This document shows, piece by piece, positions 10,142 through 57,564 of a DNA stretch of 64,000 nucleotides (its first letter is position 1; every line of letters begins with the position of its first letter). Both the position numbers and the translations under genes were made by a program. Under the pieces are notes generated by a model. The model had not been told where the DNA came from and searched no databases. It saw nothing but the letters and a program-made list of their open reading frames with translations. Location: contig DATEGA010000252.1 of the NCBI GenBank assembly GCA_035280345.1, positions 5,836 through 69,835 on the forward strand. The letters are read 5' to 3'. Source of the stretch: a bacterium (GTDB taxonomy: Bacteria; Sysuimicrobiota; Sysuimicrobiia; Sysuimicrobiales; Segetimicrobiaceae).

Positions 10142-10159
10142 GGAGGGCCGAAGGGTCCT

Positions 10160-33823: not shown

Positions 33824-33851
33824 ACCTCGAGAATCGCGGGCATTTCTGAGG

Positions 33852-37657: not shown

Positions 37658-37685
37658 TGCGCACGACCTCCGTGCCGCCGATCGC

Positions 37686-38750
37686 ATGACGCCGCCGTAC
37701 GCGATCAGCGTCATCGTCCCGACACGGCAGCGCCGCGAGGCCGTGCGACGGTTGTTGGCGGCGCTTGGAAGGCAAACGCTTGCCGCGGACCGCTTCGAGG
37801 TCATCGTGTCCGTTGACGGCTCCAACGACGGCACCTCGGAGATGCTGGACCAACTGCCCACTTCGTACGCGCTGCGTCGCGTGTTCCAGCCGCACGGCGG
37901 CCGGGCGGCGGCGTGTAACGCGGGCGTTCGGGCCGCGCAGGGTGAGACCGTCGTGCTGCTCGACGACGATATGGCCCCGGTTCCAGAATGCCTGTCCGCA
38001 CATCTTTGCGCCCATGCGGCGCACCCCCGTACGGGCGTGCTGGGTGCGGTGCCGGTCGAGATCGGGGAATCGGTGCCGCCGGTGGCCGCGTACATCGCGG
38101 ACCGATTCGGCCGGCACCTCGCAAAAATCTCGGCACCCGGCTACAGTTTTCAGGTCCGAGATTTCTACTCTGGCAACTTTTCCATCCGGCGTGACCTCCT
38201 CGTTGATGTAGGGCTCTTTGATGAAGCCTTCACCATTTACGGCAACGAAGACATCGACTTGTGGCTGCGTCTCGCCCGTGCCGGAGTGGGGCTGCGTTAC
38301 AGCGCCGCGGCGATCGCGTACCAGTGCTATTCCAAGACATTCGCGGACCTTGCCCGCGATACCATTGCCAAGGGCCGTACGTCGGTGCTGCTCGCCACCA
38401 AGCACCCGCAGGCCTTCAGTGGTCTTAGACTCGCGACCCTGCACTCGGCGTCGCCACGATGGCGCGTCGCACGCGGTGCCCTGGTGAGCCTCAGCCTGTG
38501 GTGTCCCGCGGTGCCCGTGGGCGTCATGAGGGTTGTGACCGTAGCCGAGCGGCGCCGCCCGCGGCACCTGAGGCGGATCTACGATTTTGCGCTCGATTAT
38601 TTTTACTGGCTCGGTGCGTATCAGGCCCTGCACGAAGGCGGTCTACGGCAGCTGCTCGGTAGCATCCAGCAGACTCCTCGGGGTCGTCGTGCGAGCACGG
38701 CTTCCTTCGGCCCATCGAAGAGTGCACGAGGTCGTAGCGGCGGTGGCTGA
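37686..38750 (+). CDS. GT2 glycosyltransferase
   Basis: ISVIVPTRQRREAVRRLLAALGRQT...VIVSVDGSNDGT...VVLLDDDMAP. Confidence 0.7.
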   Translation: MTPPYAISVIVPTRQRREAVRRLLAALGRQTLAADRFEVIVSVDGSNDGTSEMLDQLPTSYALRRVFQPHGGRAAACNAGVRAAQGETVVLLDDDMAPVPECLSAHLCAHAAHPRTGVLGAVPVEIGESVPPVAAYIADRFGRHLAKISAPGYSFQVRDFYSGNFSIRRDLLVDVGLFDEAFTIYGNEDIDLWLRLARAGVGLRYSAAAIAYQCYSKTFADLARDTIAKGRTSVLLATKHPQAFSGLRLATLHSASPRWRVARGALVSLSLWCPAVPVGVMRVVTVAERRRPRHLRRIYDFALDYFYWLGAYQALHEGGLRQLLGSIQQTPRGRRASTASFGPSKSARGRSGGG

Positions 38751-40209
38751 TGCCGCGCCTGTCCCGACACGCCGCGCCGCGCCGGTTGGCGCAGCGTACG
38801 GAGGCGGCGACGACGCTGGCCGGCCGGCTGTGGCGTTCTTGCCGTGGGGCAATGTCATCGAGGACTTCACCGACACCATCGGCGTCTCGCTGGAGTCGTT
38901 TTGCGATTGGTTCACGGGCAGTTACATGTTTCGCTATGTCGAGGCCTTGCAACGCGCGGGCGTGCGCACCGTGCTGATCTGCATGACCACCCGCGTGACC
39001 CGAGCGATGCGGGTTACACACCGTCCCAGCAACGCGACCGTCTACTTCCTGCCGGCGCCGAAAATTTACCGGTTTCTTCAGCGCATCATGGGCGGTCCGT
39101 CGGGGCCCTACCGGCGGTCGGTACGGGAGGCGTTCGGGGAAATCCGAGGGATTCGGCTGCTGCTCATGCCCGTTTTGACGGTGCTGAAGGAACTGGCACT
39201 CTACCTGACGACGCCGCCGCTGACGCTTGCGGGTGTCCTGCGCCGTGAACGCTGCGCCGCCGTCCTCTGTCAGGAGTACGAATACCCGCGCTTCGATGTG
39301 TGTGTCGCCCTCGGCCGGGTGATGCGGGTGCCGGTGTTCGCCACCTTCCAGGGTGGTGATTATCAGAGGAGCCGGATCGAGCGCGTAGTCCGTCCTTTCT
39401 CCATGCGCGCGTGCGCGGGCCTGATCGTTGCCCCGCGGGCGGAGATTCGGCGTGTTCAAGACCGCTACCACGTTCCCGAACGCAAACTCGCGCGGATTTT
39501 CACGCCGATCGATCGCGATATCTGGTGCGCCGAGGATCGCCGCGACGCGCGCGCCGCCTTGGGCCTCCCGCTCAGCGCCGGCGTCGTCGTGTGGCACGGC
39601 CGCATCTCAATATGGCCGAAAGGCCTGGATCTTTTGCTCGACGCGTGGACGCAAGTCTGCCGTACACGTCCCGGACGGGCGTTGCGGCTGATCCTCGTCG
39701 GTACAGGGCAAGATGCGGCGGAGTTCCGGCGCCGCGCGGCGACCGCCGTCGAGGGGACCGTCTGGTGGATCAACGAGTTCGTACACGATCGGCGGGTCAT
39801 CCGACGGTATCTCAGCGCGGCCGATGTCTACGCGTTTCCATCGCGCCACGAGGGGTTTCCGGTCGCTCCGCTCGAGGCTATGAGCTGCGGCTTGCCGATC
39901 GTCGCGGCCAAAGTGAAAGGGATTCCAGACATCCTCGAGGGCGGTGAGGCAGCGGGGGGCCTCGTTGTGCCACCGGGCGACCCCCAACAACTGGCGGCGG
40001 CAATCGGCCGTTTGCTTGACGACGAAGGGGCACGCCGCGAACTTGGACAGCGTGCGAGGCGCCGCATCGAGGCCGCGTTCTCGCTGAACACCGTAGGCCT
40101 GGCCCTGCGCGCCTTTCTCATTGAGGGTCGCCACCCCGGTGAGGCCGCTGAGTCCGGCGACGTGGGCGCTGATGGGTGCAACGGGAAGGCGCGCGATGGC
40201 GGAGCGTGA
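38740..40209 (+). CDS. GT4 glycosyltransferase (N-terminal boundary uncertain)
   Basis: FPSRHEGFPVAPLEAMSCGLPIVAAKVKGIPDIL...GLVVPPGD. Confidence 0.6.
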   Translation, partial: AVADAAPVPTRRAAPVGAAYGGGDDAGRPAVAFLPWGNVIEDFTDTIGVSLESFCDWFTGSYMFRYVEALQRAGVRTVLICMTTRVTRAMRVTHRPSNATVYFLPAPKIYRFLQRIMGGPSGPYRRSVREAFGEIRGIRLLLMPVLTVLKELALYLTTPPLTLAGVLRRERCAAVLCQEYEYPRFDVCVALGRVMRVPVFATFQGGDYQRSRIERVVRPFSMRACAGLIVAPRAEIRRVQDRYHVPERKLARIFTPIDRDIWCAEDRRDARAALGLPLSAGVVVWHGRISIWPKGLDLLLDAWTQVCRTRPGRALRLILVGTGQDAAEFRRRAATAVEGTVWWINEFVHDRRVIRRYLSAADVYAFPSRHEGFPVAPLEAMSCGLPIVAAKVKGIPDILEGGEAAGGLVVPPGDPQQLAAAIGRLLDDEGARRELGQRARRRIEAAFSLNTVGLALRAFLIEGRHPGEAAESGDVGADGCNGKARDGGA

Positions 40210-41440
40210 GATGCGGCCAATGCGCATTGTGTTTTCGTATCCGTGGCGGCTCGACGATCTTGGTGGCTCCCAGATCTCCGTCCCGCTGCTCGCGGAAGCA
40301 CTGGTCCGGCGTGGCCACCAGGTCGGCATCGTCGAGATGACGTCCGCGCCCTCGAGTAAGGTCGCGAAGGTCTTCAGCGGGCAGTTATGGACTGCGCCGA
40401 AGGTCTCTCCATCCAGCCACCCATGGCGGGGTGTGCGTTGCAGCGTCACGCAGGTTCGACAGACCCTGCGGAGCCTTAAGGCAGGCATCTGGGCGTGGCG
40501 AGGTGTACTTCACAGCATCGCCCATTTTCAGCAAGTGCTCCGGAGCTTTCAGGCGGACATCGTTTCCGTCCAATGCCCCTGGCGCCAGGCGCCGTCCGCG
40601 GTCGGGACACACCTCTTTCCGCATCACTGGCGGCTTGTGGTGACTGTGCGCGCGTCCGGTGACGTCCGCGCCAGTGCCGACGCGGACGCGTGGCTGCGAG
40701 TCTGGCAGCGGCACCTGTATGCGAGGGCCGACGCCGTGACACTGGTCAGCGACGCCCTTCGCCGGGAACTCGTCGCGCTCTACCCGTTTGCCGAGCGGCG
40801 CAGCCGCGTGATTTGCAACGGCCTTGATCCCTCCTGGTTCGCGCGGCCGGCCGGGTTGCTCCGGACGGCCGCGACGCGCTATGCGCTCTTCGTCGGCCGG
40901 TTAGACCAGAGTAAGGGCGTCGATGTGTTGCTGCATGCCTGGCAGCAAGTGCGCGCGCGCGCCGGCGGGGTCGCGCTGTGGCTCGCGGGTGATGGGCCGG
41001 AGGCAGGCAAGCTGAGCGAGCTATCTCAGCGATTGAACCTCGCGCCCGATGTGAAATTTTTGGGGCGCATCGCCCCCGATAGTCTACGCGCGCTGTATCG
41101 TGACGCCGAGCTGGTCGTCATCCCATCGCGAACCGAAGGGTCCTCGCGAGTGGCCCTCGAAGCCGGCGCGAGTGGTGCCCTCTGCGTGGCGACGTCCGTA
41201 GGAGGGATACCGGAGATCGTGGACCACACGGTGACCGGGTTCCTCGTGGACCCTGACTCGTCAAACGCGCTGGCGGCCGCCATTCTTCGAGCGCTCGAAC
41301 TGCCGGCGGCAGAGCGCGTCGCCATGAAGGCGGCTGCCCGCGGCAAAATTGCCGGACAATTTTCCCACGACCGCACCGCGGACGCGTTTGAGGAACTGTT
41401 TTGGGCGCTGCTCGCCGCGCCGAAAGGGCCGAGGCCGTGA
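40196..41440 (+). CDS. GT4 glycosyltransferase
   Basis: VIPSRTEGSSRVALEAGASGALCVATSVGGIPEIVDHTVTGFLVDPD. Confidence 0.7.
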   Translation: MAEREMRPMRIVFSYPWRLDDLGGSQISVPLLAEALVRRGHQVGIVEMTSAPSSKVAKVFSGQLWTAPKVSPSSHPWRGVRCSVTQVRQTLRSLKAGIWAWRGVLHSIAHFQQVLRSFQADIVSVQCPWRQAPSAVGTHLFPHHWRLVVTVRASGDVRASADADAWLRVWQRHLYARADAVTLVSDALRRELVALYPFAERRSRVICNGLDPSWFARPAGLLRTAATRYALFVGRLDQSKGVDVLLHAWQQVRARAGGVALWLAGDGPEAGKLSELSQRLNLAPDVKFLGRIAPDSLRALYRDAELVVIPSRTEGSSRVALEAGASGALCVATSVGGIPEIVDHTVTGFLVDPDSSNALAAAILRALELPAAERVAMKAAARGKIAGQFSHDRTADAFEELFWALLAAPKGPRP

Positions 41441-42207
41441 ACGGCGGCACCGCTGCGCGGTCGACTCCCGTGATCGACTTCACAAGACAGGCACTGAGAC
41501 GCGTGCGACGCGCGGCAGCCGGCCGCTTGGCGCGCGCGATTACGCACGTCTCGACGACGGAGCCCGTGGCCGCGCTGACATTTGACGACGGCCCGGACCC
41601 TGTGCACACGTCCCGGCTGCTGGATCTGCTCGAGAAGTACCGGGTCCGCGCGACCTTCTTCATGATTGGTCAAGCCGCCCTGAAGCATCCCGACATCGTG
41701 CGCCGCGTTGCCGACGGCGGACACAGCATCGGCAACCACACGTGGAGCCACCGGTCCTTTCCGTCGATTTCCACTCACGAGCGGTGCGCAGAGATTCGGG
41801 CGTGCGAACGCGCGCTTGCTCCCTATAGCCTCAGACTCTTCCGTCCGCCGTACGGCGATCAAAGTGTCGGGTCGTGGCTTGACGCGACACGACTGCGCTA
41901 TGCCGTCGTGACCTGGAATGCGACTGGGCACGACTGGCACGGCCGCGATGCGGCTTGGATCGTGGAGCAGGTCATGAGCCGGTTCCGTCCGGGCAGCATC
42001 ATCGGACTCCACGACGGGTTGTTTGACGCCAGCAGCGAGGACTGCCTGGACCGTGGGCCGACGCTGAGTGCGGTGGAGATCCTGCTCGCCCGCTTGGGCG
42101 GCGCGTTTCGTTTCGTCACCGTCCCCGAACTCCTCCGGCATGGCCGGCCCGTGCGTGCAGCCTGGCTTCAGGATGGCACATCAGGGCGGCGAGACGGTCC
42201 GGAATGA
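41437..42207 (+). CDS. polysaccharide deacetylase (CE4 / NodB homology domain)
   Basis: ALTFDDGPDPVHTSRLLDLLEKYRVRATFFMIGQ...GHSIGNHTWSHRSF...LFRPPYG matches NodB motifs 1-3. Confidence 0.75.
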   Translation: MNGGTAARSTPVIDFTRQALRRVRRAAAGRLARAITHVSTTEPVAALTFDDGPDPVHTSRLLDLLEKYRVRATFFMIGQAALKHPDIVRRVADGGHSIGNHTWSHRSFPSISTHERCAEIRACERALAPYSLRLFRPPYGDQSVGSWLDATRLRYAVVTWNATGHDWHGRDAAWIVEQVMSRFRPGSIIGLHDGLFDASSEDCLDRGPTLSAVEILLARLGGAFRFVTVPELLRHGRPVRAAWLQDGTSGRRDGPE

Positions 42208-43763
42208 CGTCCTCCGGGGCCGATTCACGCGGAAGGTCCCGCGGTACTGACGTTGCAGATGACCCCGCAGAGACCCTGAGTGGAGCCACGCCGGAGGTTT
42301 CGGGCGGGCCCCCCGTGGCGCCCCCGATACTTCTCGGCGGGATTCTCGCACTTGGCGCGGTTCTTGCCGTGTTCCGATCGGGTGTCCGAAGCTTTTGGCA
42401 GGATGAAGCCACCAGTGTCGCGCTGGCGCATCTCAAGTGGACGTCCCTGGCCAAAGTCTTGTGGCACGGCGAGAACAACATGGCCCTCTACTACGGCGTT
42501 CTCCACGTGTGGATCGGGGCAGTGGGTGACAGGGAGTCTGCCGTCAGGATGTTCTCTGCACTCGCGGCCGTCGGCGCCGTTGGTGCGCTGTACCTCCTCG
42601 GGGCGCGCATGTTCGATCGACGCGTGGGGTTCATCGCCGCGCTGCTGCTGTCGGTGAATGCGTATCAGATCAGATACGGGCAGGAAGCCCGCAGCTACAG
42701 CCTTCTCGTCCTTCTCGTCACTCTATCCTCGTGGGCCTATTGTCGCGTGCTCGAACGGCCGCACCGTGCCAACATGGTTTTATATTGCACCGCGAGCATT
42801 CTTGCAGTGTACGCGCATTTCTTTGCGGCGCTCGTCTTGGCGGCGCAGTGGCTGTCTTTGGTGTTTGTTGGACGGCGCGCACCAGCGCTGAAGGCCGCGT
42901 TGGCGAGCGCGGGAATCATCTGTCTATTGCTCGTTCCACTGGCCGTCCTGGCGGCGAGGAACCCGCACCAAGTCGATTGGATTCCAACCCCGGGCCCAAA
43001 GGCGATCCTCTTTCTATTCTATGCGCTGACCGGGGCCGCTCCGACCGGGGCGAAGGCCCTCCTGCTGGCATATTTCGGTGCGTGTGCGGCTGCATTCGGT
43101 GTTGGAGTCAAACAATTTGCCGCGGGTCGGTTTTCGCGGGCAACGTGGACGTACGGCTTTCTCGTGATGTGGCTGGCCGTCCCACTCGTGGTCACGCTTG
43201 CCATCTCAGTCGTGAAGCCGATTTTCATGATGTATTACCTCATCATTTTGTTGCCGCCGCTTGTCCTGTTGGCCGCGGCGGGGATCTCCAAGATTCCAAC
43301 GACCGCGGGCATCGCTGCCGCGGTGGTGCTCATCGTGGCGATGGCCCTCTACGAAGACGCGCGCTATCTGTGGAGCGCCGCCGACGAGGATTGGAGAGGC
43401 GCCGTGGCCTATGCGGCGTCGCAGCTGCAACCCGACGACGGCTTTGTGTTTGACCCGACATACGTAGAGACCCCCTTCGTCTATTATCGTCCCCGCCTCT
43501 TTGCCGCCGGGGAACCGCCGCCCGCGGCGTTCCCGTGGGATTGGAGCTGGGAGAGAATTGCCGACGGGCAGCCGAGAATAACCCGGATTCCCGGGGAGGT
43601 GGTGCGTACGCTCCCCTCCCGGTATTCGAGAATCTGGCTCTTTTCCAGGCGGGGAGAGACGGAGCCGCGGCTTACGGCGGTGCTGGCGGCAGGTTGCGCT
43701 CGAGGAACTCAGAGGGACTTCGGCGCCGTGACCCTCACGCTCTACGGCCGATGCAAACCGTAG
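42204..43763 (+). CDS. GT-C fold membrane glycosyltransferase (ArnT/PMT_2, GT39/GT83-like)
   Basis: ATGA overlap. Eleven or more TM segments. The first periplasmic loop FWQDEATSVALAHLKW...NMALYYGVLHVW carries the DE motif typical of ArnT/PMT enzymes. Confidence 0.6.
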   Translation: MTSSGADSRGRSRGTDVADDPAETLSGATPEVSGGPPVAPPILLGGILALGAVLAVFRSGVRSFWQDEATSVALAHLKWTSLAKVLWHGENNMALYYGVLHVWIGAVGDRESAVRMFSALAAVGAVGALYLLGARMFDRRVGFIAALLLSVNAYQIRYGQEARSYSLLVLLVTLSSWAYCRVLERPHRANMVLYCTASILAVYAHFFAALVLAAQWLSLVFVGRRAPALKAALASAGIICLLLVPLAVLAARNPHQVDWIPTPGPKAILFLFYALTGAAPTGAKALLLAYFGACAAAFGVGVKQFAAGRFSRATWTYGFLVMWLAVPLVVTLAISVVKPIFMMYYLIILLPPLVLLAAAGISKIPTTAGIAAAVVLIVAMALYEDARYLWSAADEDWRGAVAYAASQLQPDDGFVFDPTYVETPFVYYRPRLFAAGEPPPAAFPWDWSWERIADGQPRITRIPGEVVRTLPSRYSRIWLFSRRGETEPRLTAVLAAGCARGTQRDFGAVTLTLYGRCKP

Positions 43764-45499
43764 AGAACCGCCGGCGGGCTATCGGAATCTACTCCGGCGC
43801 GGTTCTGGCCTGCGTGGTTCTCCTCGCCGGGGTGCTCCAGCTGTGGCACATGGATGTTCGCGTTCCGTTGAGATCCCTAGGCGATGATACCTTGTTCCAT
43901 ACGATGCTCGTCAAAGGGCTCGTCGAGAACGGCTGGCCGCTGCGCAATCCGCTCTTGGGGGCCCCCGGGACATCGGAGTTGTACGATTTCCCGGAGGCGA
44001 GCAACCTCGACCTCGGCCTCATGAAGCTCGTTGCGCTCGCTTCGAAAGATTATGCCACGGTTCTGAACACGTTCTTTCTCCTGACGTTCCCGTTGACGGT
44101 GGTGACGTCCCTTTACGCGCTTCGACAGCTTCGCATTTCTTACCCCAGCGCGATTGTGGGCAGTCTCCTCTACTCGTTCCTTCCATATCATTTCCTCCGG
44201 GGCGAGTCCCACCTCTTTCTCGCCGCGTACTACGTCGCTCCCCTTATCGTGGTGGTCGCCGTATGGATTCTGCGTCCCGACGGCGGTCCGAAGCATGAGC
44301 GGTTCGGATGGCCTGCCGCCAAAGTGGCCGCGGGGATCGGCATCGCTCTAGCCGTGGCATCCAGTTTCATCTACTATGCGGTGTTCGGCGCCTTCATCAT
44401 CGCGATCGCCGGCCTGCTGGCGGTTCGTCTGCAGGACCGGCGGGTACGCCGCGCACGAATGACCCTGGCCGCGTGTCTTGCCGGCCTCATCGCCTTCACG
44501 TACCTGCTCAATGTGTCTCCGTCGTTGCTCTATATCGTACAGCACGGGAGGAATCGCGTGATGAGTGTCCGCGATCCCGCCGAAGCACAAATCTACGGTT
44601 TGAAGATCGCGACGCTCTTCTTGCCGATCGCGCACCACCGGGTGCATCTGCTGGCCTCGATCCGGGCCCGGTATGATGAGGGGGCCCCGCTTACGAACGA
44701 GAACGGGATGGCATCGCTGGGAGCGGTGGGAGCGATCGGGTTTCTCCTATTGCTGACAAATCTTACCCTCGGTATCCCGGAGGGGCAGGACAAAGCCATG
44801 CTCCACAATCTTGCCTCGCTGAACCTCGCGTGCGTACTCCTCGGTACGCTCGGCGGTCTGGGGACACTGGCATCGCACGTCCTGCCGTTGTTGAGGTCCT
44901 ATAACCGGATCAGCATTTTCATCGGATTTTTCTCCCTGGCGGCCGTGATGATGGTGCTCGATCGGCTGAGTGCCTGGTTACGCGAGCGGCGCGGCGGGTG
45001 GGTCGTCTATCCGGTCCTGGCCACCCTGGTGCTCGCGGGAGTGTGGGACCAAACGAGTCCATCGTATGTGCCCGACTACGCGGCGTTGCGCGCCGTCGAT
45101 GCAAGCGATGCCGCCTTTGTGGGACGACTCGAGGCGTCCTCGCCCTTGCACGCGATGATCTTTCAACTCCCGTACATGCAGTTTCCCGAACCGCTGGGAG
45201 ATTTTCCGCCCACACTGGAGACGTACACGCATCTGCGAGGGTACCTGCACTCTCGGACTTTGCGATGGAGCTACGGCGCGATGAAGGGAAGGGCGGTTGA
45301 TGCATGGCAGAAGACTGTCGCGTCGCAGCCGATGGGAGAGCTCGTCGCCGCGGTCCGCGCGGCCGGGTTTTCAGGCATCTATGTTGACCGGAACGGGTAC
45401 GCAGACGGGGGTCGGACAGTGATGGCGGCGCTTTCGGAAGCGCTTCGCACGACGCCGCTAGTCAGTCCCAATGGGCGGCTTGTGTACTTTCCGTTATAG
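43751..45499 (+). CDS. polytopic membrane protein with large C-terminal periplasmic domain; possible GT-C-like glycosyltransferase (family unassigned)
   Basis: The N-terminal half has ten or more hydrophobic helices. A soluble C-terminal domain of about 150 aa follows. No diagnostic motif was recognised. Confidence 0.35.
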   Translation: MQTVENRRRAIGIYSGAVLACVVLLAGVLQLWHMDVRVPLRSLGDDTLFHTMLVKGLVENGWPLRNPLLGAPGTSELYDFPEASNLDLGLMKLVALASKDYATVLNTFFLLTFPLTVVTSLYALRQLRISYPSAIVGSLLYSFLPYHFLRGESHLFLAAYYVAPLIVVVAVWILRPDGGPKHERFGWPAAKVAAGIGIALAVASSFIYYAVFGAFIIAIAGLLAVRLQDRRVRRARMTLAACLAGLIAFTYLLNVSPSLLYIVQHGRNRVMSVRDPAEAQIYGLKIATLFLPIAHHRVHLLASIRARYDEGAPLTNENGMASLGAVGAIGFLLLLTNLTLGIPEGQDKAMLHNLASLNLACVLLGTLGGLGTLASHVLPLLRSYNRISIFIGFFSLAAVMMVLDRLSAWLRERRGGWVVYPVLATLVLAGVWDQTSPSYVPDYAALRAVDASDAAFVGRLEASSPLHAMIFQLPYMQFPEPLGDFPPTLETYTHLRGYLHSRTLRWSYGAMKGRAVDAWQKTVASQPMGELVAAVRAAGFSGIYVDRNGYADGGRTVMAALSEALRTTPLVSPNGRLVYFPL

Positions 45500-45539
45500 C
45501 GGCCCCCTCGGCCCGGTCCTCAGTCCGACGTACCGAACA

Positions 45540-46238
45540 TCACGGCGCGCGCCATATGCCGAGCACGGACTTGCCGATTCGATAGCCCAGCGCCCTATCG
45601 GCCCAGCGTGAGCAGGGAACCAGCATTCGGTCCCACACCTTGACTTGGGCAGCGGTTGGCATGCTGCTTCGCAGCATCAAGCGATTGCCGAGAGAGGCAA
45701 GCAGGCCGACGCAGTCGAGGTAGCAGAGGCGCTCCCGCTGCAGGTGCGGAGGGACGATCCGGGCGAGGCTGGCTGCGGTGTACCGCCGGCAGTGCCCCAC
45801 CGCCGCATCGAACGGGGTGTAGAGCCAGGGGTGTGCCGGGGCCAACAGCATGAGGACCCCTTGCGGCCGGAGGTGTTGTGCGACCAGCGCGAGTTCTCCG
45901 CGATCATCGGGGATATGCTCGAGCACGTCCACGTAGAGGACCGCGTCAAACAGTTGATCTGGTTCTAGCGTCGCGAGCGTGCCCTGCACGACTGTCCGGC
46001 GATCGAGCGTCCCCGCGCCGGCGCGCAGGCGGTCCACGAGGACCGAGTCGGGCTCGACACAGACCCATCGTGAGCAGGGAACATCGGCGAAAAGCCGTGT
46101 GGTCGCGCCGATCCCCGCCCCGACCTCGAGCACGTCGCCGTGAAGATACGTTTCGACCAACCCGCGGAAATATTGCTTCCAATTCCGAGCGGCCTCGAAC
46201 AAGGGCAGCTCGGTTCCCACATATCGGTAGTCAGCCAT
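45540..46238 (-). CDS. class I SAM-dependent methyltransferase (last gene of minus-strand GT-C module)
   Basis: VLEVGAGIGATTRLFADV (motif I), FDAVLYVDVLEHIPDD, LRPQGVLMLLAP. Overlaps the upstream GT2 by 8 nt. Confidence 0.65.
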   Translation of the reverse strand: MADYRYVGTELPLFEAARNWKQYFRGLVETYLHGDVLEVGAGIGATTRLFADVPCSRWVCVEPDSVLVDRLRAGAGTLDRRTVVQGTLATLEPDQLFDAVLYVDVLEHIPDDRGELALVAQHLRPQGVLMLLAPAHPWLYTPFDAAVGHCRRYTAASLARIVPPHLQRERLCYLDCVGLLASLGNRLMLRSSMPTAAQVKVWDRMLVPCSRWADRALGYRIGKSVLGIWRAP

Positions 46239-47262
46239 CAGCGGGGAATACCTTATCGACGCCGTGGACGAACACCGGCGCATCGCGCAGCGGAATGACG
46301 GTGGTATTGGATCTCGCGCTGATGATGACGAAGCAGAGGAACAGTGAGATGAGCACCACCTGCGAGAAGAGGATGAGGAGAATGCCCAACGCCGATGTCG
46401 CCCAGCCCGGGATGGCGAGGCGTGTGCTCCATCGAAGGACCACGACCGCGACCATAAGCAGAAGCAACAGAACGGCGGACCCGGATGTGACGGCGAGGAG
46501 CCTGACGGCGACGACATCGCCAAAGACCGATATCGCGCTGAGCCCGTGTCCTACCAAGCCGATGAAGTTGAGCCTGGACTTCCCGGCCAGTCGCCGCCCG
46601 CGGCTGAGGGGGATTGCCCGGCAGGGCAGCCGTGCCCGAAACACCGCCGCTGCGTAGTGATTCCATAGCTCCGAAACGATGACCAGACGCGCAAGAATCG
46701 CGGTCGGGATGACGCTGAAGTTGCCGACCTGGACTTTGGTACCCGTCAGCAGCCAGTGAAGGAGCTGGTACCCACGATAGAAAAACTGAAACGCCACCGT
46801 CTCCATTCGTCTGGCGCGCGCCGCGAAAATAATGCTGCTCCGATTCTCCCGCACGCTCTCGCGCAGAAGAACCGCCACATCTTCGGGGCGGTCTTCCCCG
46901 TCCGCATCCATCACGACCACGAACTCGGCAGGGACGTGCTGATAGACGTACACAAGGGCCACGGCGATGGCGCGCTGATGGCCGAGGTTGCGCCGGAGTC
47001 GCAGGATGTCGACTTGTTCGATGCGTTGGAAGTTCCATTCACCGAACCGTGCCGGGAGCGGGGTCGTGGATCCGTCGTCGATGAGCAGAATACGAAGAGG
47101 GGCGGCGAGATCGGCGAGTGCGTTGTCGATGTTGGGCAGCAAGAGACTCGCGGCCGCCCAGTCGTTGAAGACCGGGAGCACGATGGTCACGCTGCCGCGT
47201 ACTGCTCTGGATTCGGAGGGAGCCGGTGCGGCCGCCGATGCCGCCGGAAGCGTGAAACTCAT
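46231..47262 (-). CDS. GT2 polyprenyl-phosphate sugar synthase (GtrB/ArnC/DPM1-like) with C-terminal TM helices
   Basis: VTIVLPVFNDWAAASLLLPNIDNAL...LLIDDGS...VVMDADGEDRPED, plus two C-terminal hydrophobic helices (LLLLMVAVVVL; ILLILFSQVVLISLFLCFVII), as in GtrB/ArnC. Confidence 0.65.
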   Translation of the reverse strand: MSFTLPAASAAAPAPSESRAVRGSVTIVLPVFNDWAAASLLLPNIDNALADLAAPLRILLIDDGSTTPLPARFGEWNFQRIEQVDILRLRRNLGHQRAIAVALVYVYQHVPAEFVVVMDADGEDRPEDVAVLLRESVRENRSSIIFAARARRMETVAFQFFYRGYQLLHWLLTGTKVQVGNFSVIPTAILARLVIVSELWNHYAAAVFRARLPCRAIPLSRGRRLAGKSRLNFIGLVGHGLSAISVFGDVVAVRLLAVTSGSAVLLLLLMVAVVVLRWSTRLAIPGWATSALGILLILFSQVVLISLFLCFVIISARSNTTVIPLRDAPVFVHGVDKVFPADG

Positions 47263-47379
47263 GAGGGGAAGGTGATCCCATTAGCGCGGAGATGACTCCT
47301 CCCGCCGTTCGATCCGTGTGGCGAATCTTTCGAGCGGCGTCCATCCATCCGCGCGGCCACGTTCGCCCGCCATGAGCGT

Positions 47380-48891
47380 TCAGCGCAGCGAATAGACTTC
47401 GATGCCCCCGGCTGCGTATAGCGGCTTTTGACGCGGCACTTCATGTCCCAAAAGCTCGCCGAGGCGCGGCCATTCCTCCTTGTCCCGGACGCTCGTCAGC
47501 AAGAGCGCCGGGCGCTGGTGCCGCAAGAAGTCTGGCAACGTGGTCGATGTTCTCAGCGAACAGGATCTCCGGCCAATACATCCGCGCAGCGCTCCAAACG
47601 CATACTGTATCTCCGGATCCACCGCAAAGTGAGGCCCAATCTCGGGAAAGTAAGTGAAAAGGTATGTTGATCGATACTCCATGTTCGTGAGCAGGACGGC
47701 GTCGGTCCGATAGGGGCCCCGGCGGAGCCACTGCGCGAGCTGCGCGATGTCGGTAGGACGCTGTTGTGTCACGAAGACAGGCGAAAAGGGCGTCTCCGAA
47801 GACACCCGTGTTGCGGCGACCCCACAGGCGACCATCGAGCCGACGGCGACGCAAAACACGGCGGTCGTCGCGGCCCACCGCGGCTTGGCGCGAAGCACCA
47901 ACGGCCAGAAGACAAAAGGCAACGCCAGAGCAAGACTGGCGAGATACAGTCGATCCCACATCCGCGGGCCTCGGAGCAGCGTCAAACCGGCGTCTTCGGC
48001 CCATAGGACGCTCAAGATCGCGAGATAGAGGCCGCGTTCCGGAGTAACATCCCTCCGTGCAATTCGAGACAGTTCCCAAATGACGCCCACGCCGATAAAC
48101 GCCGGTAGCACTCGCTGTATTTGGGTCACGGCGACGTGCCAAATCACCTTGATAGCGGTGGACGACCCCACGGCAGACGATCGAAAGCCGCCCTGGATCG
48201 CGCGTCCGAAACGAAACACGGCGCCCGTAGACACAATGTTCCCCGCGAGCCAGAAGAGGGGAAACGCCAAGAGGATCCCCACGATCGACACCGTCGCCGG
48301 CCAGTGCCGCGTCTTGATGAAGTAGTAGGCCGCAAAGAGGGGGGTCAACGCCCAGACTTCGTACCGGGTCATCTCAGCCAAACATATCAGCGGAAGCGCC
48401 GAAGCGAGATACCACCCTCGCCGCTCGGTGACATCCGCGGCTCTGACCAGCAAGTACGTGCCCGCTGTCAGCTCAAAGAGCGCGCTTGCCTCCGACAGTG
48501 AACTGCTGCTGAGTCCAATGTGTAACGGGAGAGCCGCAAGGATGGAGGTGCTGAGCAGCGCGGTGAGCCTGCCAAAGGTTCGCCTCGTGAGCAGGTAAAA
48601 CGCGAACACCGTTAGCGTTCCCAGCACGAGGTTGAGAATTCTGGTCGAAATCAGGGGATCGCGCACGACGTAGGAGAAGGCGCCGGCTAAGTAAAGAAAG
48701 CCGGGTGGCCAGGTGCCCTCGGTCGCGAAGTACGGCGACCGCGACCACCAGTACGCGAGAAACGCACGGACCGGACCATCCCCCGGCGCGTCACTCCACC
48801 TCACGAGCACGACCAGGCGGACGGCGAACGCAACGGCGACGAGACCGGTTATCGCGAGCCACTCGTATCCGGCCACCCGGGCACGGTGCAC
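47380..48891 (-). CDS. GT-C fold membrane glycosyltransferase (ArnT/PMT_2-like)
   Basis: Polytopic. The N-terminal loop ...WSDAPGDGPVRAFLAYWW... has the same architecture as ArnT/PMT_2. It heads a three-gene minus-strand module. Confidence 0.6.
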   Translation of the reverse strand: MHRARVAGYEWLAITGLVAVAFAVRLVVLVRWSDAPGDGPVRAFLAYWWSRSPYFATEGTWPPGFLYLAGAFSYVVRDPLISTRILNLVLGTLTVFAFYLLTRRTFGRLTALLSTSILAALPLHIGLSSSSLSEASALFELTAGTYLLVRAADVTERRGWYLASALPLICLAEMTRYEVWALTPLFAAYYFIKTRHWPATVSIVGILLAFPLFWLAGNIVSTGAVFRFGRAIQGGFRSSAVGSSTAIKVIWHVAVTQIQRVLPAFIGVGVIWELSRIARRDVTPERGLYLAILSVLWAEDAGLTLLRGPRMWDRLYLASLALALPFVFWPLVLRAKPRWAATTAVFCVAVGSMVACGVAATRVSSETPFSPVFVTQQRPTDIAQLAQWLRRGPYRTDAVLLTNMEYRSTYLFTYFPEIGPHFAVDPEIQYAFGALRGCIGRRSCSLRTSTTLPDFLRHQRPALLLTSVRDKEEWPRLGELLGHEVPRQKPLYAAGGIEVYSLR

Positions 48892-49064
48892 TCGCGCCGC
48901 GGTGGCCGATCCGGCTACCGAACGCGCGGCGATGTCCGTATTTGTCGAAGGCCTGACAGACTTGACGGCTCGCGACCACCAGTGCTTCGACTTCAGGCAC
49001 GCCCAAATATTTCCCCGCCTCCTACGCCGAAAGCACGACGCGGACCTTCAGGCGGCCTCTCCCG
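48892..49064. promoter_or_regulatory. divergent intergenic region between the minus-strand GT-C module and the GH26-like gene
   Basis: 173-bp gap between divergently oriented genes. Confidence 0.25.
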
Positions 49065-50681
49065 TTGCGGAGGCGAGTCGGTGCGCGTTACACTAGCATC
49101 AAGATCTGCGGGTTTCACACTGGCGGTGCCGGCGCAGTGTTCTCTTCTCGCAATCGCGGCAACAACCGTTCTGTTTCCGTCGCCGGTTCCATCCTCGTTG
49201 TCTTGATTGCCCTTGTCGCCTTGCGTTCCCCAGCAGGTCTTTCGCGGCCGGCGCCAACTCACACCATACCTGCGGACGCGTTCCTGGCGCAATTCTACGA
49301 CGACATCACGTTGACGCGGTTGGTTCATACCGAGATCGATCCATACATCTACTTTCCGGATCCTGGGAATTTCATGCCCTGGGGCGCGAATTCCACCCGC
49401 ACTGCCCGTGAGTACTCCGCCAGATGGGAGGGCAATTGGAACTTTCCCACCACGGGTACGTACACGTTTGGCGTTTCCACGAGTAAGGGCATGCGTGTGT
49501 GGATCGACCGGCGTCTTGTTATCGATGAATGGCGCGATCAGCAGGCAACATACAGCGTCGACGTTCACGTCAACGCCGGAAGACACTACATCAAAGTCGA
49601 ATACTACTTCGAGGGCGGCGGTCACGCATATGCGGAGGCCGGATGGGGACTTAAGATCCCGCCTGCTCCTGCAAGAGGTCCGAATCCGGCCGGTACCGCC
49701 GCAACCAAGGCTGCGATTATCGCGTATCTCAACTCTCTACCCCACAGGTCGTCCCAGAAATTGATATCCGGACAACTCGATGACCTCGATTTACCGGGTC
49801 AGGTGACGACGATTTTTCGCAGGACTGGGAAATGGGTCGGCATCGAAAATTTGACGCTCGAGGGAATCCGCAGCTGGTGGAATCTGAGCACGGTGCAACA
49901 ATATGCCACCGATTACTGGGACAGGGGCGGCCTCGTGATGCTCACCGATATGGCTCCCAATCCTGTCCAGGTGCTCGCAGGGAAATGCGGCAGCTCCAAT
50001 CGCTGGGATTGTGGCGGCGGCAGTCTCTCTCCTTACTCTTGGAACGATCTCGTAACGCCGGGCACCGCGATAAATCGTCAGTGGCTCACCGATCTAGACC
50101 GATTTGTCCCTATGCTCACGCAGTTTAAGCGGCATGGCATCGTCGTCTTCTATAGCCTGATGCCGGAGATGACCAGCGGGTGCTGGCAATGGTACAACTG
50201 CAGAGTCTCCGGTGCGCAATTCGTGAATCTGTGGCGGCAAACCTATCAGTATTTGGTCGGTGTCAAAGGCCTCGACAACATCATCTGGGTATGGTCGCCC
50301 AACATGGGTAACTATGATGTGTCGTTCTACCCCGGATCGAATTATGTGGATGTGATGGCCAGCGACGAGTACGCTCGTCCGGCGACGCGCTACATACCGA
50401 ACGATCCCGTCAACTATTCCGCGGAAGCGGCCTTAGGAAAGCCGTATGCGATTGCGAGCAGCGGTCCAGACACCGGCAGCGGTGCCGCGCCGTGCGGGAC
50501 GTACGACTACGCGAAGTGGCTTGCCGGGATGAAATCAAACTTCCCGGAAGCCACGATGTGGCTGCCGTGGGGCGGATGTTACGGCATGCAGGCACAACAA
50601 GGTGTGTCCACAGTTCTCAACGATGCTTGGGTTGTAAACAGGGACGCATTACCCGATTTTACCGGCACAGGTAGGCGGTAA
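49065..50681 (+). CDS. secreted PA14-domain + clan GH-A glycoside hydrolase (GH26 mannanase-like)
   Basis: Signal-like ILVVLIALVALRSPAG. PA14-like YSARWEGNWNFPTTGTYTFGVSTSKGMRVWIDRRLVIDEW...YIKVEYYF. GH26-like FYSLMPEMTSGCWQWY (resembles RP-HEMNG-WFWWG) and IWVWSPN. Confidence 0.5.
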   Translation: MRRRVGARYTSIKICGFHTGGAGAVFSSRNRGNNRSVSVAGSILVVLIALVALRSPAGLSRPAPTHTIPADAFLAQFYDDITLTRLVHTEIDPYIYFPDPGNFMPWGANSTRTAREYSARWEGNWNFPTTGTYTFGVSTSKGMRVWIDRRLVIDEWRDQQATYSVDVHVNAGRHYIKVEYYFEGGGHAYAEAGWGLKIPPAPARGPNPAGTAATKAAIIAYLNSLPHRSSQKLISGQLDDLDLPGQVTTIFRRTGKWVGIENLTLEGIRSWWNLSTVQQYATDYWDRGGLVMLTDMAPNPVQVLAGKCGSSNRWDCGGGSLSPYSWNDLVTPGTAINRQWLTDLDRFVPMLTQFKRHGIVVFYSLMPEMTSGCWQWYNCRVSGAQFVNLWRQTYQYLVGVKGLDNIIWVWSPNMGNYDVSFYPGSNYVDVMASDEYARPATRYIPNDPVNYSAEAALGKPYAIASSGPDTGSGAAPCGTYDYAKWLAGMKSNFPEATMWLPWGGCYGMQAQQGVSTVLNDAWVVNRDALPDFTGTGRR

Positions 50682-51038
50682 ACGGGAGACGGTCTTGCCG
50701 TCCAGCCGAAAGATCCATTCCATCCCTCTTTTGGTGACAGGGCGTGAAGATGTCCCCGGGCAAGCATGTTCGACGATGGACCAAGCGCCGCGTTGGGATA
50801 CTGTGGAGGGGGGCACCGCAGGCGGTTCGGGCGCCTCGCGGGAACGTACCGTCCGGCGGGTGGGCACCCTCGTCGTGATGTTGCGGTCCGTAGATGTGCC
50901 GGGCTACGGTGTCTACCGAGCGTATGAAATGGCGCGTTTGGAACACGGCGTGGCGCAGACTCTTATTAACGACGGCGTGGCGCGGAAGTACCGGGAAGGA
51001 CTGAAGCTGGGTGAAAATGGTAAGGCATAGCGAACCGA

Positions 51039-51340
51039 CATGACCCGGTTGAAAGGGCCTACAACAGACGCATAGTCGCGAGATATCCGCGGGGCGCAGG
51101 TACCATCTCCAAGGGCGCCGGCCTGGGCAAGTCGCTTTTCCTCTGGCTCCTCGTGCTGCTGATCGCAGCGTCGGCCTTCTGGCCTCGAGGGAGTGGGAGT
51201 TTGTACGATTGGGATGAGGCCATCTATGCCCAGGTGGCGAAGGCGATGAACGCCACGGGGGATTGGCTCCGGTCCCAATACGAATACCAAGTGTGGATCG
51301 ACAAACCTCCGCTGCTGATGTGGTCCGCGGCACGCTTGCC
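51039..51340 (+). pseudogene. truncated remnant of an ArnT/PMT_2-like GT-C gene (first TM helix and DE loop only)
   Basis: In-frame translation MTRLREAYNRR...LFLWLLVLLIAASAFWP...LYDWDEAIYAQVAKAMNATGDWL...KPPLLMW reproduces the ArnT N-terminal signature. It then decays into non-hydrophobic sequence and stops. No continuation is found in any frame. Confidence 0.5.
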
Positions 51341-51482
51341 GACAACAGTCAAACGTCTCGTGGTCGTCGGCAACGAACGGGACGGCGGAAATTCAACCCA
51401 GTGCACGTGCCCAGCAGGTCGTCGATCGACGGGCATGCTTACAGTGAAACCGGCAGATCGCCGACGAGAGGAGGCTCGACAA

Positions 51483-52399
51483 TGAAGGAAGAATCGGGCC
51501 GCCTCGGCGCTAAGGCTTACGTGACGGTGTTGAGCACCGATAATTATTTGGAGGGCGTTCTTGTCCTGAACGAGTCGTTGCGCTTGTGCAAATCAAAATA
51601 TGGACTTTATGTTGTGATGGGTAGCAAGGTGCGCAAGTCCGTTCGCGATACGCTGGCCAAGGCAGGCGTGCGAATGATCAACTCGCAGCCTCTCAATATA
51701 CCGGAGCAAATCCGGCTCGCAAACCTAAGTAGTGACCACCATCGTCATTGGGCTGGGGTATTCGAGAAGCTGATTGTCTTTTCGCTGTGTCAATTTCGGA
51801 AGATCGTGTATCTTGACAGTGATCTCCTTGTCATCAAGAACATAGATGAGTTGTTTGACAAGCCCCACATGTCCGCAGTGATAGCCGACATCTATCCCGG
51901 CAATCACAAGTGCGTCTACCTGAACGCAGGCCTCATGGTGATTGAACCCGAGTCGGACCTCACGGACCGGCTCATCGAGCTTCTTCCGAACGCATTTGAA
52001 TCCGAGAAACAGTGGAGGACGGCCGCCGGGCGTCCGGTTAGTATAGGCGTCCAAAGCGTTATTAACATGTTCTGGAGCGAGTGGATTTCAAGAAACGCGT
52101 TGCATCTTGACCACAAGTACAATGTCATGGCCGATCAGGTCGACTACTATCGGAGAGAGCTCGACTGCAAGTGGCGCGGTCCCGACGGTATACACGTCCT
52201 CCACTTTATTGGAGAGGTGAAGCCGTGGATGAGGACCGGGACAGATTTCTTGCGCTCCGCTGGTGGGCTCGTTCTCGATCGCCGGATCGGGGAACTGGCT
52301 GCCCTTATGGCGTATAAGGCGGTGTTGAGAAGCGCACAGCTACGGATCAGATATGTCCATCAGAGGGAGCACAGAGGCTTGAACGTTTTTGAGATCTAG
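51483..52399 (+). CDS. GT8-family glycosyltransferase (glycogenin/LgtC-like), low-GC gene
   Basis: YVTVLSTDNYLEGVLVLNESL (GT8 N-terminal motif), DxD at YLDSDLLV, and HF.G..KPW near the C-terminus. GC about 50% versus about 70% for the flanks. Confidence 0.65.
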
Positions 52400-54063: not shown

Positions 54064-54094
54064 CGGAGCCTTCTCGCGCGGCGACTTCTTTATA

Positions 54095-55051
54095 TTAGTT
54101 TCGCGTCAGGAAGTCCCGCAGCGAAACCGCGTACCGCTCCGCGCGTCGTCGTACACGATGAAGGAACGGTTGCCGGTACGGCGATAGCGCCCGTCGAAGC
54201 GCCGCTCGGATCTCGGGGTCGTCGACGCCCTGGTCCGACAAGTAACGTTCAAGCCAGGTCAAGAAGAACAGCCGCGCGGAGTGTTGTTGCCCCGCTTTCT
54301 TCACCCGGGCAACACAGGAGTCCGCGTGCAGCCGGTACCGGTCCCAGCACTCGCCGGCGACGAAGACGGATTCCCGAAGATAGACTTTGGCTAAGAACGC
54401 TCGATCCTCGTAGAGTTGGTAGACGCCTCGAAACGACTCTTCGAATCCCCCGACCCGCTCGATCATGCCCCGACGGCACAACAGGTCCGAAGGGCAGGGG
54501 GTAATCGCCGCGCCCAGCGGCGCGGTGAGTTTCAGGAGGGCGGGCGGTCTCATCAGCACTTCGGTTTGGACGCCAAGCTCCGGTACGTCATCCCGGTGGA
54601 AGTTCTGGGGCTCTCCCGACCAACTGCGCCAGTATTGCGTCGCGCCGTACACCATCGCGGCCTCGCGGTGACGGCCGAGTATCGCCACTTGCTGTGTCAA
54701 CTTCTGCGGCAGCCAGACGTCGTCGGCGTCCAGCAGTGCAATATAGGCCCCCCGGGCGTGACGCACGGCCAGATTGCGGGAGGCGCAGACGCCTCGGTTC
54801 TGCCGGCCGGCGTGCGTAAGGTAGCGGACCCTGCCGGGGTCACGTTCCGCGAATCGTTGCGCCATCTCCGGCGAGGCGTCCGTCGAGCCGTCGTCGACCA
54901 GAAGCAACTCCCAGGTGTCATAGGTTTGGCCGCGTACGCTTTCGACGGCTTCTGCGAGGAACGCTTCGGCATTGAAGAACGGCACGATGACGGAGACAAC
55001 CGGCCGGCTGCCGGCTATTCCACGTTCTGTCTCAGGGCCTACACCCAGCAT
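54095..55051 (-). CDS. GT2 glycosyltransferase
   Basis: VVSVIVPFFNAEAFLAEAVESVRGQTYDTWELLLVDDGSTD...LLDADDVWLPQKL. Confidence 0.7.
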   Translation of the reverse strand: MLGVGPETERGIAGSRPVVSVIVPFFNAEAFLAEAVESVRGQTYDTWELLLVDDGSTDASPEMAQRFAERDPGRVRYLTHAGRQNRGVCASRNLAVRHARGAYIALLDADDVWLPQKLTQQVAILGRHREAAMVYGATQYWRSWSGEPQNFHRDDVPELGVQTEVLMRPPALLKLTAPLGAAITPCPSDLLCRRGMIERVGGFEESFRGVYQLYEDRAFLAKVYLRESVFVAGECWDRYRLHADSCVARVKKAGQQHSARLFFLTWLERYLSDQGVDDPEIRAALRRALSPYRQPFLHRVRRRAERYAVSLRDFLTRN

Positions 55052-55132
55052 CGTGGAACTCCGGTTTCCTCCGACCTCGTCCGGCGCAGCGGTTGTTTCG
55101 TTATCCGACTAAATCCTCTCCTGCGCATGGCG

Positions 55133-56485: not shown

Positions 56486-56491
56486 CCGGCC

Positions 56492-57211: not shown

Positions 57212-57564
57212 TCGTCTGAGGGATCTAGACCGTACAGGTGTTCGGTAAATTGTCCCGGTAGGTGACGGTAGTCCAGCGTGGAGCGTGGACTGCGGCCGGC
57301 ACCGCTGCGCCGGGGGCAGGGGTTATTTGAGTGGTACCAATTCATGCCCGCTTTTGATGCGGTGCGTCAGGCAGGCAATGTCTCGGCCGGGGCTGTCGCC
57401 ATCTCGGTCACCCAAAGGGATACCGCGTGGGCCATGACGAAGTGAGGTGCGCCGGGCCGCACGGCGAGTCTTCGCCCGGGGATGGCGTCCGGCCCGCACC
57501 ATACCCTCAGTGTTGATTGGGAGCCCGGGTCCTATCACACGATGTGCATGAAACGCGCGGATAG
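57212..57564. promoter_or_regulatory. divergent intergenic region between the CAP/DGC/GT2 minus operon and the REC-LuxR regulator gene
   Basis: 353-bp non-coding gap containing a locally AT-richer stretch (about 57150-57250). Confidence 0.25.

Follow-up and report, generated by a model that had tools for sequence, protein, structure and literature searches.

The window analysed here is a stretch of 64,000 nucleotides (contig DATEGA010000252.1 of assembly GCA_035280345.1, positions 5,836 to 69,835 of the forward strand) from a bacterium of the Segetimicrobiaceae, and it represents one very large glycan locus with a GC content of approximately 0.62. Five neighbouring genes, referred to here as A, B, MT, GT2 and C, probably (we put this at roughly 0.7) encode a Gtr/Arn-type multi-component periplasmic glycosylation system within an ABC-transporter-dependent surface-glycan locus of at least 55 kb. 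The five open reading frames (ORFs) had been proposed in an earlier reading of the DNA without database searches (the sequence-only reading), and all of them are present. They are listed below, followed by two further features on which the argument draws.

42204-43763, plus strand, 519 aa: gene A, a GT-C glycosyltransferase (GT) of the PMT_2 type, penultimate gene of a long plus-strand GT operon
43751-45499, plus strand, 582 aa: gene B, a predicted GT-C transferase of a large unclassified family
45540-46238, minus strand, 232 aa: gene MT, a class I S-adenosylmethionine (SAM)-dependent methyltransferase without transmembrane (TM) helix or signal peptide
46231-47262, minus strand, 343 aa: gene GT2, a polyprenyl-phosphate sugar synthase of the GtrB/ArnC/DPMS type
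47380-48891, minus strand, 503 aa: gene C, a GT-C transferase of the PMT_2/PMT type, first gene of the minus-strand operon C-GT2-MT
41401-42207, plus strand: CE4 polysaccharide deacetylase (Polysacc_deac_1, 3e-32)
9194-11470, plus strand: Wzm/Wzt ABC exporter (ABC2_membrane, 1.2e-18; ABC_tran, 4.6e-20, with Wzt_C, 7.9e-8)

In the mechanism that we propose, the membrane-anchored GT2 would move one sugar, at the cytoplasmic face, from a nucleotide sugar to polyprenyl (undecaprenyl) phosphate, a role assigned because of its full-length homology to ArnC and GtrB. The co-translated methyltransferase probably modifies this sugar, either on the nucleotide precursor or on the lipid, as conserved gene coupling suggests. 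A flippase encoded outside the window, which itself holds no candidate gene, would take the lipid-linked sugar to the periplasmic face, where three enzymes of the GT-C(A) fold, A, B and C, would transfer it to acceptors. The likeliest acceptor would be the undecaprenyl-diphosphate (Und-PP)-linked polymer exported by Wzm/Wzt, which would thereby gain side-branch residues. B would be the evolutionarily fixed partner of the GT2-MT pair, and the A and C cassettes would use either this donor or others made elsewhere to add residues at further positions, diversifying the surface glycan between strains. We infer the sugar, the acceptor (polymer or protein) and the substrate of the methyltransferase. 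Side-chain addition by GT-C enzymes to O-antigens made by the ABC-transporter route has precedent, as have flippases of differing families, enzymatic editing of a lipid-linked donor and loci with several GT-Cs (PMC11127046); in Gram-positive bacteria, one GT-A enzyme can serve two GT-Cs and flippases can be unlinked (PMC8035078).

The synthase, the methyltransferase and the GT-C proteins

The genes lie in two convergent operons, one ending in GT4-GT4-CE4-A-B and the other consisting of C-GT2-MT, with 40 bp separating their stop codons. The long GT operon that ends in A and B spans 34807 to 45499. The CE4 stop overlaps the A start by 4 nt (ATGA), A overlaps B by 13 nt, and GT2 overlaps MT by 8 nt (ATGGCTGA), so that the methyltransferase is translationally coupled to the synthase. 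A promoter and terminator scan of 41000-49300 returned nothing beyond shuffled expectation, and no terminator was found in the 40-bp gap between B and MT.

GT2 matches Pfam Glycos_transf_2 (2.1e-12), carries a DAD motif at residues 119-121 and has two C-terminal TM helices by hydropathy, at approximately 254-278 and 286-316. Its alignment to the solved ArnC structure (9bhc, 7.8e-11) covers residues 24-299 with the membrane region included, and that to the solved GtrB homologue sll0501 (5ekp, 3.4e-10) covers residues 25-307 through the juxtamembrane and membrane helices; the match to archaeal DPMS (5mlz) is weaker (1.2e-3). Among the five GT2 proteins of the window it is the only one with C-terminal TM helices. 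As judged from sequence, the enzyme class is clear, namely a predicted membrane-anchored polyprenyl-phosphate sugar synthase, in agreement with the GtrB/ArnC/DPM1 type with two C-terminal helices that had been proposed. The concern raised at the same time, that GT2 might be a soluble enzyme, is answered by the ArnC and GtrB alignments, which run through the membrane region. The NCBIfam matches, to ArnC (6.5e-11) and PpgS (2e-4), both fall far under the equivalog cutoffs, and the sugar therefore cannot be named. MT is the methyltransferase that had been predicted at this position (Pfam Methyltransf_23, 7.2e-13), and among solved structures it comes closest to generic small-molecule methyltransferases (DhpI, 2.6e-5).

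Both A and C had been described as ArnT/PMT_2-like, and both pass Pfam PMT_2. A, with approximately eight hydrophobic segments, does so at 5.9e-8, above the gathering score, and has 155 detectable homologues. Its best NCBIfam match is NF052499, the MT1671/Rv1635c-type mannosyltransferase (2.7e-12, with a score of 45.9 against a cutoff of 900). Rv1635c/MT1671 is the mannosyltransferase that caps lipoarabinomannan (LAM), and PpgS works with Rv3779 in galactosamine addition. NCBI names A a glycosyltransferase family 39 protein; it has no match to PF02366, MIR or PMT_4TMC (Pfam, E<=0.01) and is therefore probably not a bona fide PMT. MIR and PMT_4TMC likewise match neither B nor C at this threshold.

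C matches both PMT_2 (1.1e-9) and PMT (PF02366, 6.6e-9) above the gathering scores and has just 25 detectable homologues. Its AlphaFold2 model (mean predicted local distance difference test score, pLDDT, 83.7; predicted TM-score, pTM, 0.87) retrieved only GT-C structures with Foldseek at E<=1e-3, and the best superposition was on ArnT (5ezm/5f15, TM-score 0.64/0.60, root-mean-square deviation (rmsd) 6.2), which bears out the earlier assignment. The Foldseek ranking for C also puts STT3 first, and AftA, AftD, Emb and Pmt4 are among the fold matches of B and C. A TRYE motif at residues 175-178 is conserved. C also contains an insertion of approximately 17 aa (QYAFGALRGCIGRRSCSL) at 47542-47607, residues about 429-450, that is missing in all 22 aligned homologues, including one of 64% identity, and that coincides with the sole segment of the model with pLDDT <50; it could be real, or it could be a local assembly or frameshift artefact.

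B, a polytopic protein, had been left unassigned. It has no match in Pfam or NCBIfam, and neither the single sequence nor a 50-sequence profile searched at E<=10 found a relative in the PDB. Its AlphaFold2 model is of high confidence (pLDDT 90.6, pTM 0.91), and its top 23 Foldseek matches in the PDB are all GT-C structures (STT3/AglB, AftA, DPY19, ArnT, AftD and Pmt4); beyond rank 23 come unrelated transporters at low probability, and at E<=1e-3 there are GT-C structures only. The best TM-score normalised by target length is that to ArnT (0.55). An aspartate, D46, in a GDD/GDx loop after the first TM helix (TM1) is invariant in 50 sequences, as are H147, H296, R382 and R386. Since a confident model with GT-C matches is joined by the invariant D46, B is, as modelled, the third GT-C of the locus, from a family undescribed in Pfam, NCBIfam and the PDB, in line with the suggestion of up to three such enzymes. 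The C-terminal extracytoplasmic domain, approximately 40 residues past the last TM helix, contains a further invariant motif at residues 505-509 (R-W506-S507-Y-G509), which we take to be reminiscent of the WWDYG motif of STT3, PglB and AglB. A longer ORF for B, starting at 43535, was considered and found unsupported, as homologues cover 99-100% of the 582-aa form.

The presence of an acidic motif in the first periplasmic loop had been proposed as a check on all three membrane proteins. In A, the motif is WxD67E68, approximately 10 residues past TM1, with D67-E68 invariant in 44 sequences and R163 invariant as well; in C it is PGD38GP after TM1, with D38 invariant in 23 sequences and the single Asp in PGDGP. 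Together with D46 of B, these residues sit approximately 10-15 residues past TM1 in proteins with positively charged N-termini. A, B and C thus each carry a predicted catalytic-loop Asp in the first periplasmic loop.

The public annotation seems to start several of the genes too late when NCBI starts are compared with homologue-supported ones. B is annotated at 535 aa as against the homologue-supported 582 aa, A at 482 aa as against the 519 aa that the conserved ATGA overlap gives, and GT2 at 319 aa, which would lose the first beta-strand that aligns to ArnC.

The B family and its neighbourhoods

The B family is large. A word index gave at least 922 matches, and an exhaustive profile search, counted as clusters at 50% identity, gave 7,064 at E<=1e-3, 6,032 at 1e-10 and 4,379 at 1e-30. 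At least 526 relatives were found among GTDB species representatives, the closest being 45% identical. They include Bacillota (Pelotomaculum, Paenibacillus, Desulfosporosinus and Heliomicrobium), members of the Acidobacteriota, Planctomycetota, Verrucomicrobiota, Nitrospirota, Chloroflexota, Vulcanimicrobiota and Elusimicrobia, and methanogens (Methanothrix, Methanoregula and Methanocella). Many homologues carry the JGI label 'phosphoglycerol transferase', which refers to LtaS/OpgB. We rejected this label, as neither B nor five homologues had a Sulfatase match in Pfam and the fold is GT-C; the B-family profile search of the PDB also found no LtaS, EptA or OpgB chains. Aligning the B-family and C-family profiles with hhalign gave a probability of 1%, with the GDD/GDG loop alone aligned. 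The nearest Pfam signal is sub-threshold, to PF19528 (DUF6056/GT_STM0557_N), at 0.87 for B and 2e-4 for the homologue P0036. A tblastn search with B found nothing in phages, and hence no evidence of phage-borne seroconversion; in plasmids it returned one weak hypothetical protein.

The neighbourhoods of the family were surveyed at 79 loci. GtrB-like GT2 genes were counted with our own gene-calling heuristic, an iterated GT2 hidden Markov model (HMM) combined with a TM filter, since phmmer with the single GT2 of the window was too insensitive for this census. A GT2 with C-terminal TM helices was located within 10 kb of B in 21 of the 79 loci and within 3 kb in 11. Three loci hold canonical GtrA-GtrB-B operons, with a GtrA-like gene: in L009 a 124-aa protein with four TM helices is followed by the GT2 and then by the B homologue, in L033 the B homologue is followed by a 132-aa multi-TM protein and the GT2, and in L078 the B homologue is followed by the GT2 and a 139-aa multi-TM protein. 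In Pelotomaculum (L008/L002), the B homologue is followed by a GT2::GtrA_DPMS_TM fusion and a GT87. A Pfam census of 139 proteins encoded within two genes of B at 39 loci gave Methyltransf_11 (22), GT4 (17), DUF4214 (12), DegT (10), GtrA_DPMS_TM (7), epimerase (7) and GT2 (5). Methyltransferases were enriched beside B, where they account for 14.8% of immediate neighbours, compared with 3.9% of genes at a distance of over four positions; in 20 of the 79 loci one lies directly next to B (position ±1). These neighbourhoods appear to tie the family to lipid-linked monosaccharide donors.

Comparison with individual relatives suggests which parts of the module are fixed. In L088, a B homologue (65% identity) is followed by convergent MT (78%) and GT2 (76%) genes with the same 8-nt overlap and with no A upstream; in L075, a metagenome-assembled genome of the Blastocatellales, B is again followed by convergent genes for a methyltransferase (1.2e-10 to the window MT) and a GT2 with TM helices (1.1e-13), and the trio is flanked by two more polytopic proteins of approximately 1,015 aa. 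The close relative L005 keeps the MT/GT2 pair at 92%/91% identity with the same overlap, and its C homologue, 64% identical, lies on the opposite strand between two unrelated 10-TM proteins. L006 has flanks 79-96% identical to window positions 49065-61033 (five of six matched genes at 86-96%); between its GH26 and GT2::methyltransferase fusion genes, where the window has a GT8, it encodes a PF19528-type GT-C, a 647-aa PMT-like protein and an A homologue (52%). Elsewhere, the order GT4-GT4-CE4-A is kept at 85-92% identity (L087), an A homologue forms an isolated pair with a GT2 with TM helices (L007) or stands alone among housekeeping envelope genes (L089), and a C homologue lies near a GT2::GtrA fusion (L090). 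One GT2 accompanied by several polytopic GT-C-like proteins recurs in L008, L039, L062 and L075.

Since the B-GT2-MT trio recurs in L088 and L075 while A and C vary in close relatives, we conclude that the stable module is B+GT2+MT and not C+GT2+MT, with A and C as exchangeable cassettes, and B is the probable cognate transferase for the GT2/MT donor pair. Of the Gtr/Arn-like arrangement that the sequence-only reading had seen, the type of system thus finds support, but its grouping of C, GT2 and MT as a unit does not, as it is B that travels with the GT2-MT pair.

Extra polytopic proteins with 8-11 TM helices flank the GT-C genes in several relatives (L005 at 1881-3695 and 6019-7854; L002/L008 at 5132-8020; L075 at 6819-9872 and 14025-17063). 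Those of L005 and L002 have no Pfam match on record and carry Asp motifs after TM1 (DGDTFW, DSDTLWH). They are probably members of more unclassified GT-C families.

A family of approximately 7,000 clusters at 50% identity, now called 'hypothetical' or wrongly 'phosphoglycerol transferase', becomes readable as GtrC-like GT-C proteins, and this reassignment would improve the annotation of glycan loci in many phyla and in methanogens. A literature search for DUF6311 found no papers. In the literature and libraries searched, neither the GT-C nature of the family nor its repeated linkage with a GtrB-like synthase and methyltransferases is described; the family may already be classified elsewhere, for instance in CAZy or AFDB. 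The conserved GT2-MT-B trio offers a testable route for installing methylated sugars outside the cytoplasm. It is possible, though we consider it doubtful, that B founds a new, widespread GT-C family of bacteria and methanogenic archaea that works with a GtrB-like synthase and a coupled SAM-dependent methyltransferase, with the sugar methylated on polyprenyl phosphate or just before loading, then flipped and added outside the cytoplasm, where SAM is unavailable. Our literature search on methylation of polyprenyl-linked sugars found no such route to O- or N-methylated side-chain sugars. The swapping of GT-C cassettes between soil relatives of approximately 90% identity suggests that uncultured bacteria diversify their surface glycans in a way comparable to O-antigen seroconversion.

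Known systems and alternative explanations

The overall logic, a lipid-linked monosaccharide donor and GT-Cs that decorate an exported glycan, is textbook, and the main use of the present reading is correct annotation of the locus. The GtrA/GtrB/GtrC systems of Shigella and Salmonella and the galactose-adding equivalent of Klebsiella likewise use a membrane-anchored GT2 to make an undecaprenyl-phosphate sugar and periplasmic GT-Cs, the variable and specificity-determining part, that act on an exported Und-PP-linked polymer (PMC11127046). The window differs in that it has no nearby GtrA, three GT-Cs per synthase and a methyltransferase coupled to the synthase, and B has no sequence similarity to described GtrC types beyond the sub-threshold PF19528 signal. 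The ORF12-15 pentofuranose system of Citrobacter youngae (GT136, PMC11127046) shares post-polymerisation, extracytoplasmic side-chain addition to an ABC-dependent glycan, catalysed by a GT-C(A) enzyme whose family had not been classified before, and a lipid-linked donor that is enzymatically modified before use. Unlike in that system, the synthase of the window is a GT2 acting on a nucleotide sugar and not a phosphoribosyl pyrophosphate (PRPP)-dependent phosphoribosyltransferase, there is no MATE flippase, and the modifier is a methyltransferase rather than a phosphatase/epimerase. The Gram-positive systems CsbB/GtcA/YfhO, GtlA/GtlB, GttA/GttB, CsdAB/CD/EF with the unlinked CflA, and GacI/J/K/L (PMC8035078) also consist of GT-A and GT-C pairs; their GT-Cs are often of the PMT_2 type and sometimes lack any Pfam domain, the GT-A enzyme GttA works with two different GT-Cs, the flippase gene frequently lies apart from the others, and several systems can decorate the polymers of one cell. 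In contrast, the presence of a Wza-like OPX protein in the locus suggests that the organism of the window is diderm; teichoic acids are not the acceptors, and B, having no Pfam match, is not of the YfhO family. The aminoarabinose pathway resembles the window in that ArnC is the nearest solved relative of GT2, C superposes best on ArnT and a CE4-fold enzyme is adjacent, but the window has no ArnA, ArnB, ArnE and ArnF set, GT2 lies far under the ArnC equivalog cutoff and the context is a polysaccharide locus. The mycobacterial GT-Cs that use polyprenyl-phosphate sugars share the MT1671 match of A, the weak PpgS match of GT2 and the use of a common lipid-linked donor by several GT-Cs; the matches are, however, far under the family cutoffs, and the organism and polymer are unrelated to mycobacterial cell-wall glycans.

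Several observations weigh against a Gtr/Arn-type decoration system. None of the known classes of flippase gene (GtrA/SMR-type, Wzx or MATE) is represented in the window. No small multi-TM ORF resembling GtrA/SMR proteins, no MOP/MATE-like ORF and no Wzx-like ORF was found in the 64 kb, as had been reported for GtrA, and no ORF of 70-230 aa in the window has three or more hydrophobic segments; its polytopic ORFs are limited to the phosphoglycosyl transferase (PGT), the Wzy_C protein, A, B, GT2 and C. GT2 scores 41.8 bits with the ArnC model against a cutoff of 529, and MT resembles generic small-molecule methyltransferases only. Because methyltransferases are abundant in the locus, with eight domains, the position of MT could reflect ordinary cytoplasmic methylation of the polymer. 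By our gene-calling heuristic, 58 of the 79 B-family loci have no GtrB-like GT2 within 10 kb. There is one donor synthase for three GT-Cs, and A and C may use other donors or be unrelated to GT2. Finally, the sequence holds nothing that identifies the acceptor.

The alternatives differ in what the GT-Cs act on. It is unlikely that the GT-Cs build the polymer itself, such that an exported lipid-linked primer has its main chain extended or branched by A, B and C from polyprenyl-phosphate sugars, as in mycobacterial LAM and arabinogalactan synthesis. A and B are indeed the last, translationally coupled genes of the 34807 to 45499 GT operon, the best NCBIfam match of A is to a LAM mannosyltransferase (2.7e-12), AftA, AftD and Emb are among the fold matches, and other genomes, too, group several GT-Cs around a single GT2. 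However, the window already encodes at least 15 cytoplasmic GT4, GT2, GT8 and WecG transferases and an ABC exporter whose Wzt_C recognises finished chains, A is far under the NF052499 cutoff (45.9 against 900), and exchange of the GT-C set between relatives with approximately 90% identical flanks fits optional decorations better than core polymerases. We give little credence to the idea that the C-GT2 pair, possibly with the CE4 enzyme, puts a (de-N-acetylated) amino sugar on lipid A or the lipopolysaccharide core in the manner of ArnC/ArnD/ArnT, an arrangement that presumably would also resemble Francisella FlmF2/NaxD/FlmK. The superposition of C on ArnT (TM-score 0.64/0.60, rmsd 6.2) and the ArnC and weak PpgS matches of GT2 would fit, as would the cytoplasmic CE4 coupled to A and the order in L003, where a YdjC-family deacetylase (7089-7949) lies directly 5' of the C homologue and a GT2 lies 3' of it. 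Both the CE4-A coupling and the L003 arrangement are reminiscent of the way in which ArnD or NaxD removes N-acyl groups from lipid-linked amino sugars. But that L003 GT2 has no TM helices, ArnA, ArnE and ArnF genes are lacking in the window, the CE4 protein matches NodB/PgdA at approximately 1e-36 and ArnD at just 0.0088, and the genes sit inside a polysaccharide locus.

For B, an activity like that of an oligosaccharyltransferase or ligase, with a whole lipid-linked glycan moved en bloc to protein or another acceptor, is highly improbable. STT3 and AglB are its top Foldseek matches by E-value (approximately 1e-7), the invariant RWSYG recalls WWDYG, and the family also occurs in methanogenic archaea. 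Yet an STT3-first ranking is common to C, a clear PMT_2 protein, and so does not discriminate; the best target-normalised TM-score is to ArnT (0.55), searching the PDB with the B-family profile at E<=10 retrieves neither STT3 nor PglB nor AglB, no NCBIfam STT3 match exists, and the neighbourhoods point to monosaccharide donors of the GtrB/GtrA type. It also strikes us as rather improbable that any of the GT-Cs belongs to the PMT/GT39 class of protein O-glycosyl(mannosyl)transferases and acts on secreted proteins, the foremost candidate being A on account of its invariant DE motif. The GT39 name given to A, the PF02366 match of C (6.6e-9), Pmt4 among the fold matches and the solitary A homologue of L089 are consistent with it. 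Against these, A matches PMT_2 and not PF02366, MIR and PMT_4TMC are found in none of the three proteins, A is operon-fused to polysaccharide GTs in an order kept in L087, and PMT_2 proteins that decorate glycopolymers (GtlB, GacL, CsdD/F and GtsC) are well documented (PMC8035078).

The surrounding glycan locus

The sequence-only reading had described the module as appended to the locus. It is instead embedded, as glycan genes go on beyond C up to approximately 55051. On the plus strand, the locus begins with a Wza-like OPX protein, a Wzz/GNVR protein and a P-loop protein, followed by a GHMP kinase, a large PGT, a methyltransferase, Wzm and Wzt with Wzt_C. Then come GT4s, a small PGT, an epimerase, the Wzy_C protein and WecG; four GT4s, a DegT aminotransferase, an oxidoreductase and a GT2; and three methyltransferases, a GT4, an APH-like protein, a GT2, two GT4s and the CE4 deacetylase. 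Genes A, B, MT, GT2 and C lie 3' of CE4, and beyond C are genes for a PA14-GH26 protein, a GT8, a GT2::methyltransferase fusion, a GT2 and a CBS-GGDEF protein. Wzm/Wzt is the presumed route that takes the acceptor glycan to the periplasm.

The CE4 protein matches NodB (1.6e-36) and PgdA (7e-37) in NCBIfam, and ArnD only at 0.0088. Its N-terminus has neither a signal peptide nor a TM helix. Because it has no signal peptide, it is probably a cytoplasmic deacetylase, translationally coupled to A. Its substrate may be the main polymer or a lipid-linked N-acetylhexosamine donor.

A 613-aa protein encoded mid-locus on the minus strand (24981-26822) has an N-terminal hydrophobic, signal-like segment and no Pfam match. 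The eight methyltransferase domains of the locus lie in ORFs at 8227-9225, 23636-24511, 27127-28122, 31956-34658, 45540-46238 and 52396-54063. An APH-like protein of the kinase fold is encoded at 35981-37657, and the Wzt with its carbohydrate-binding Wzt_C domain at 10160-11470. Taken together, these features recall chain termination of the WbdD type and suggest a heavily methylated glycan. The PA14 and GH26 (mannanase-family) hydrolase at 49065-50681 is encoded divergently from the C operon and shares 86% identity with its counterpart in the relative L006 (275-1894). Trimming or release of the polymer would be a possible role for it, and its presence hints at a backbone resembling mannan or xylan.

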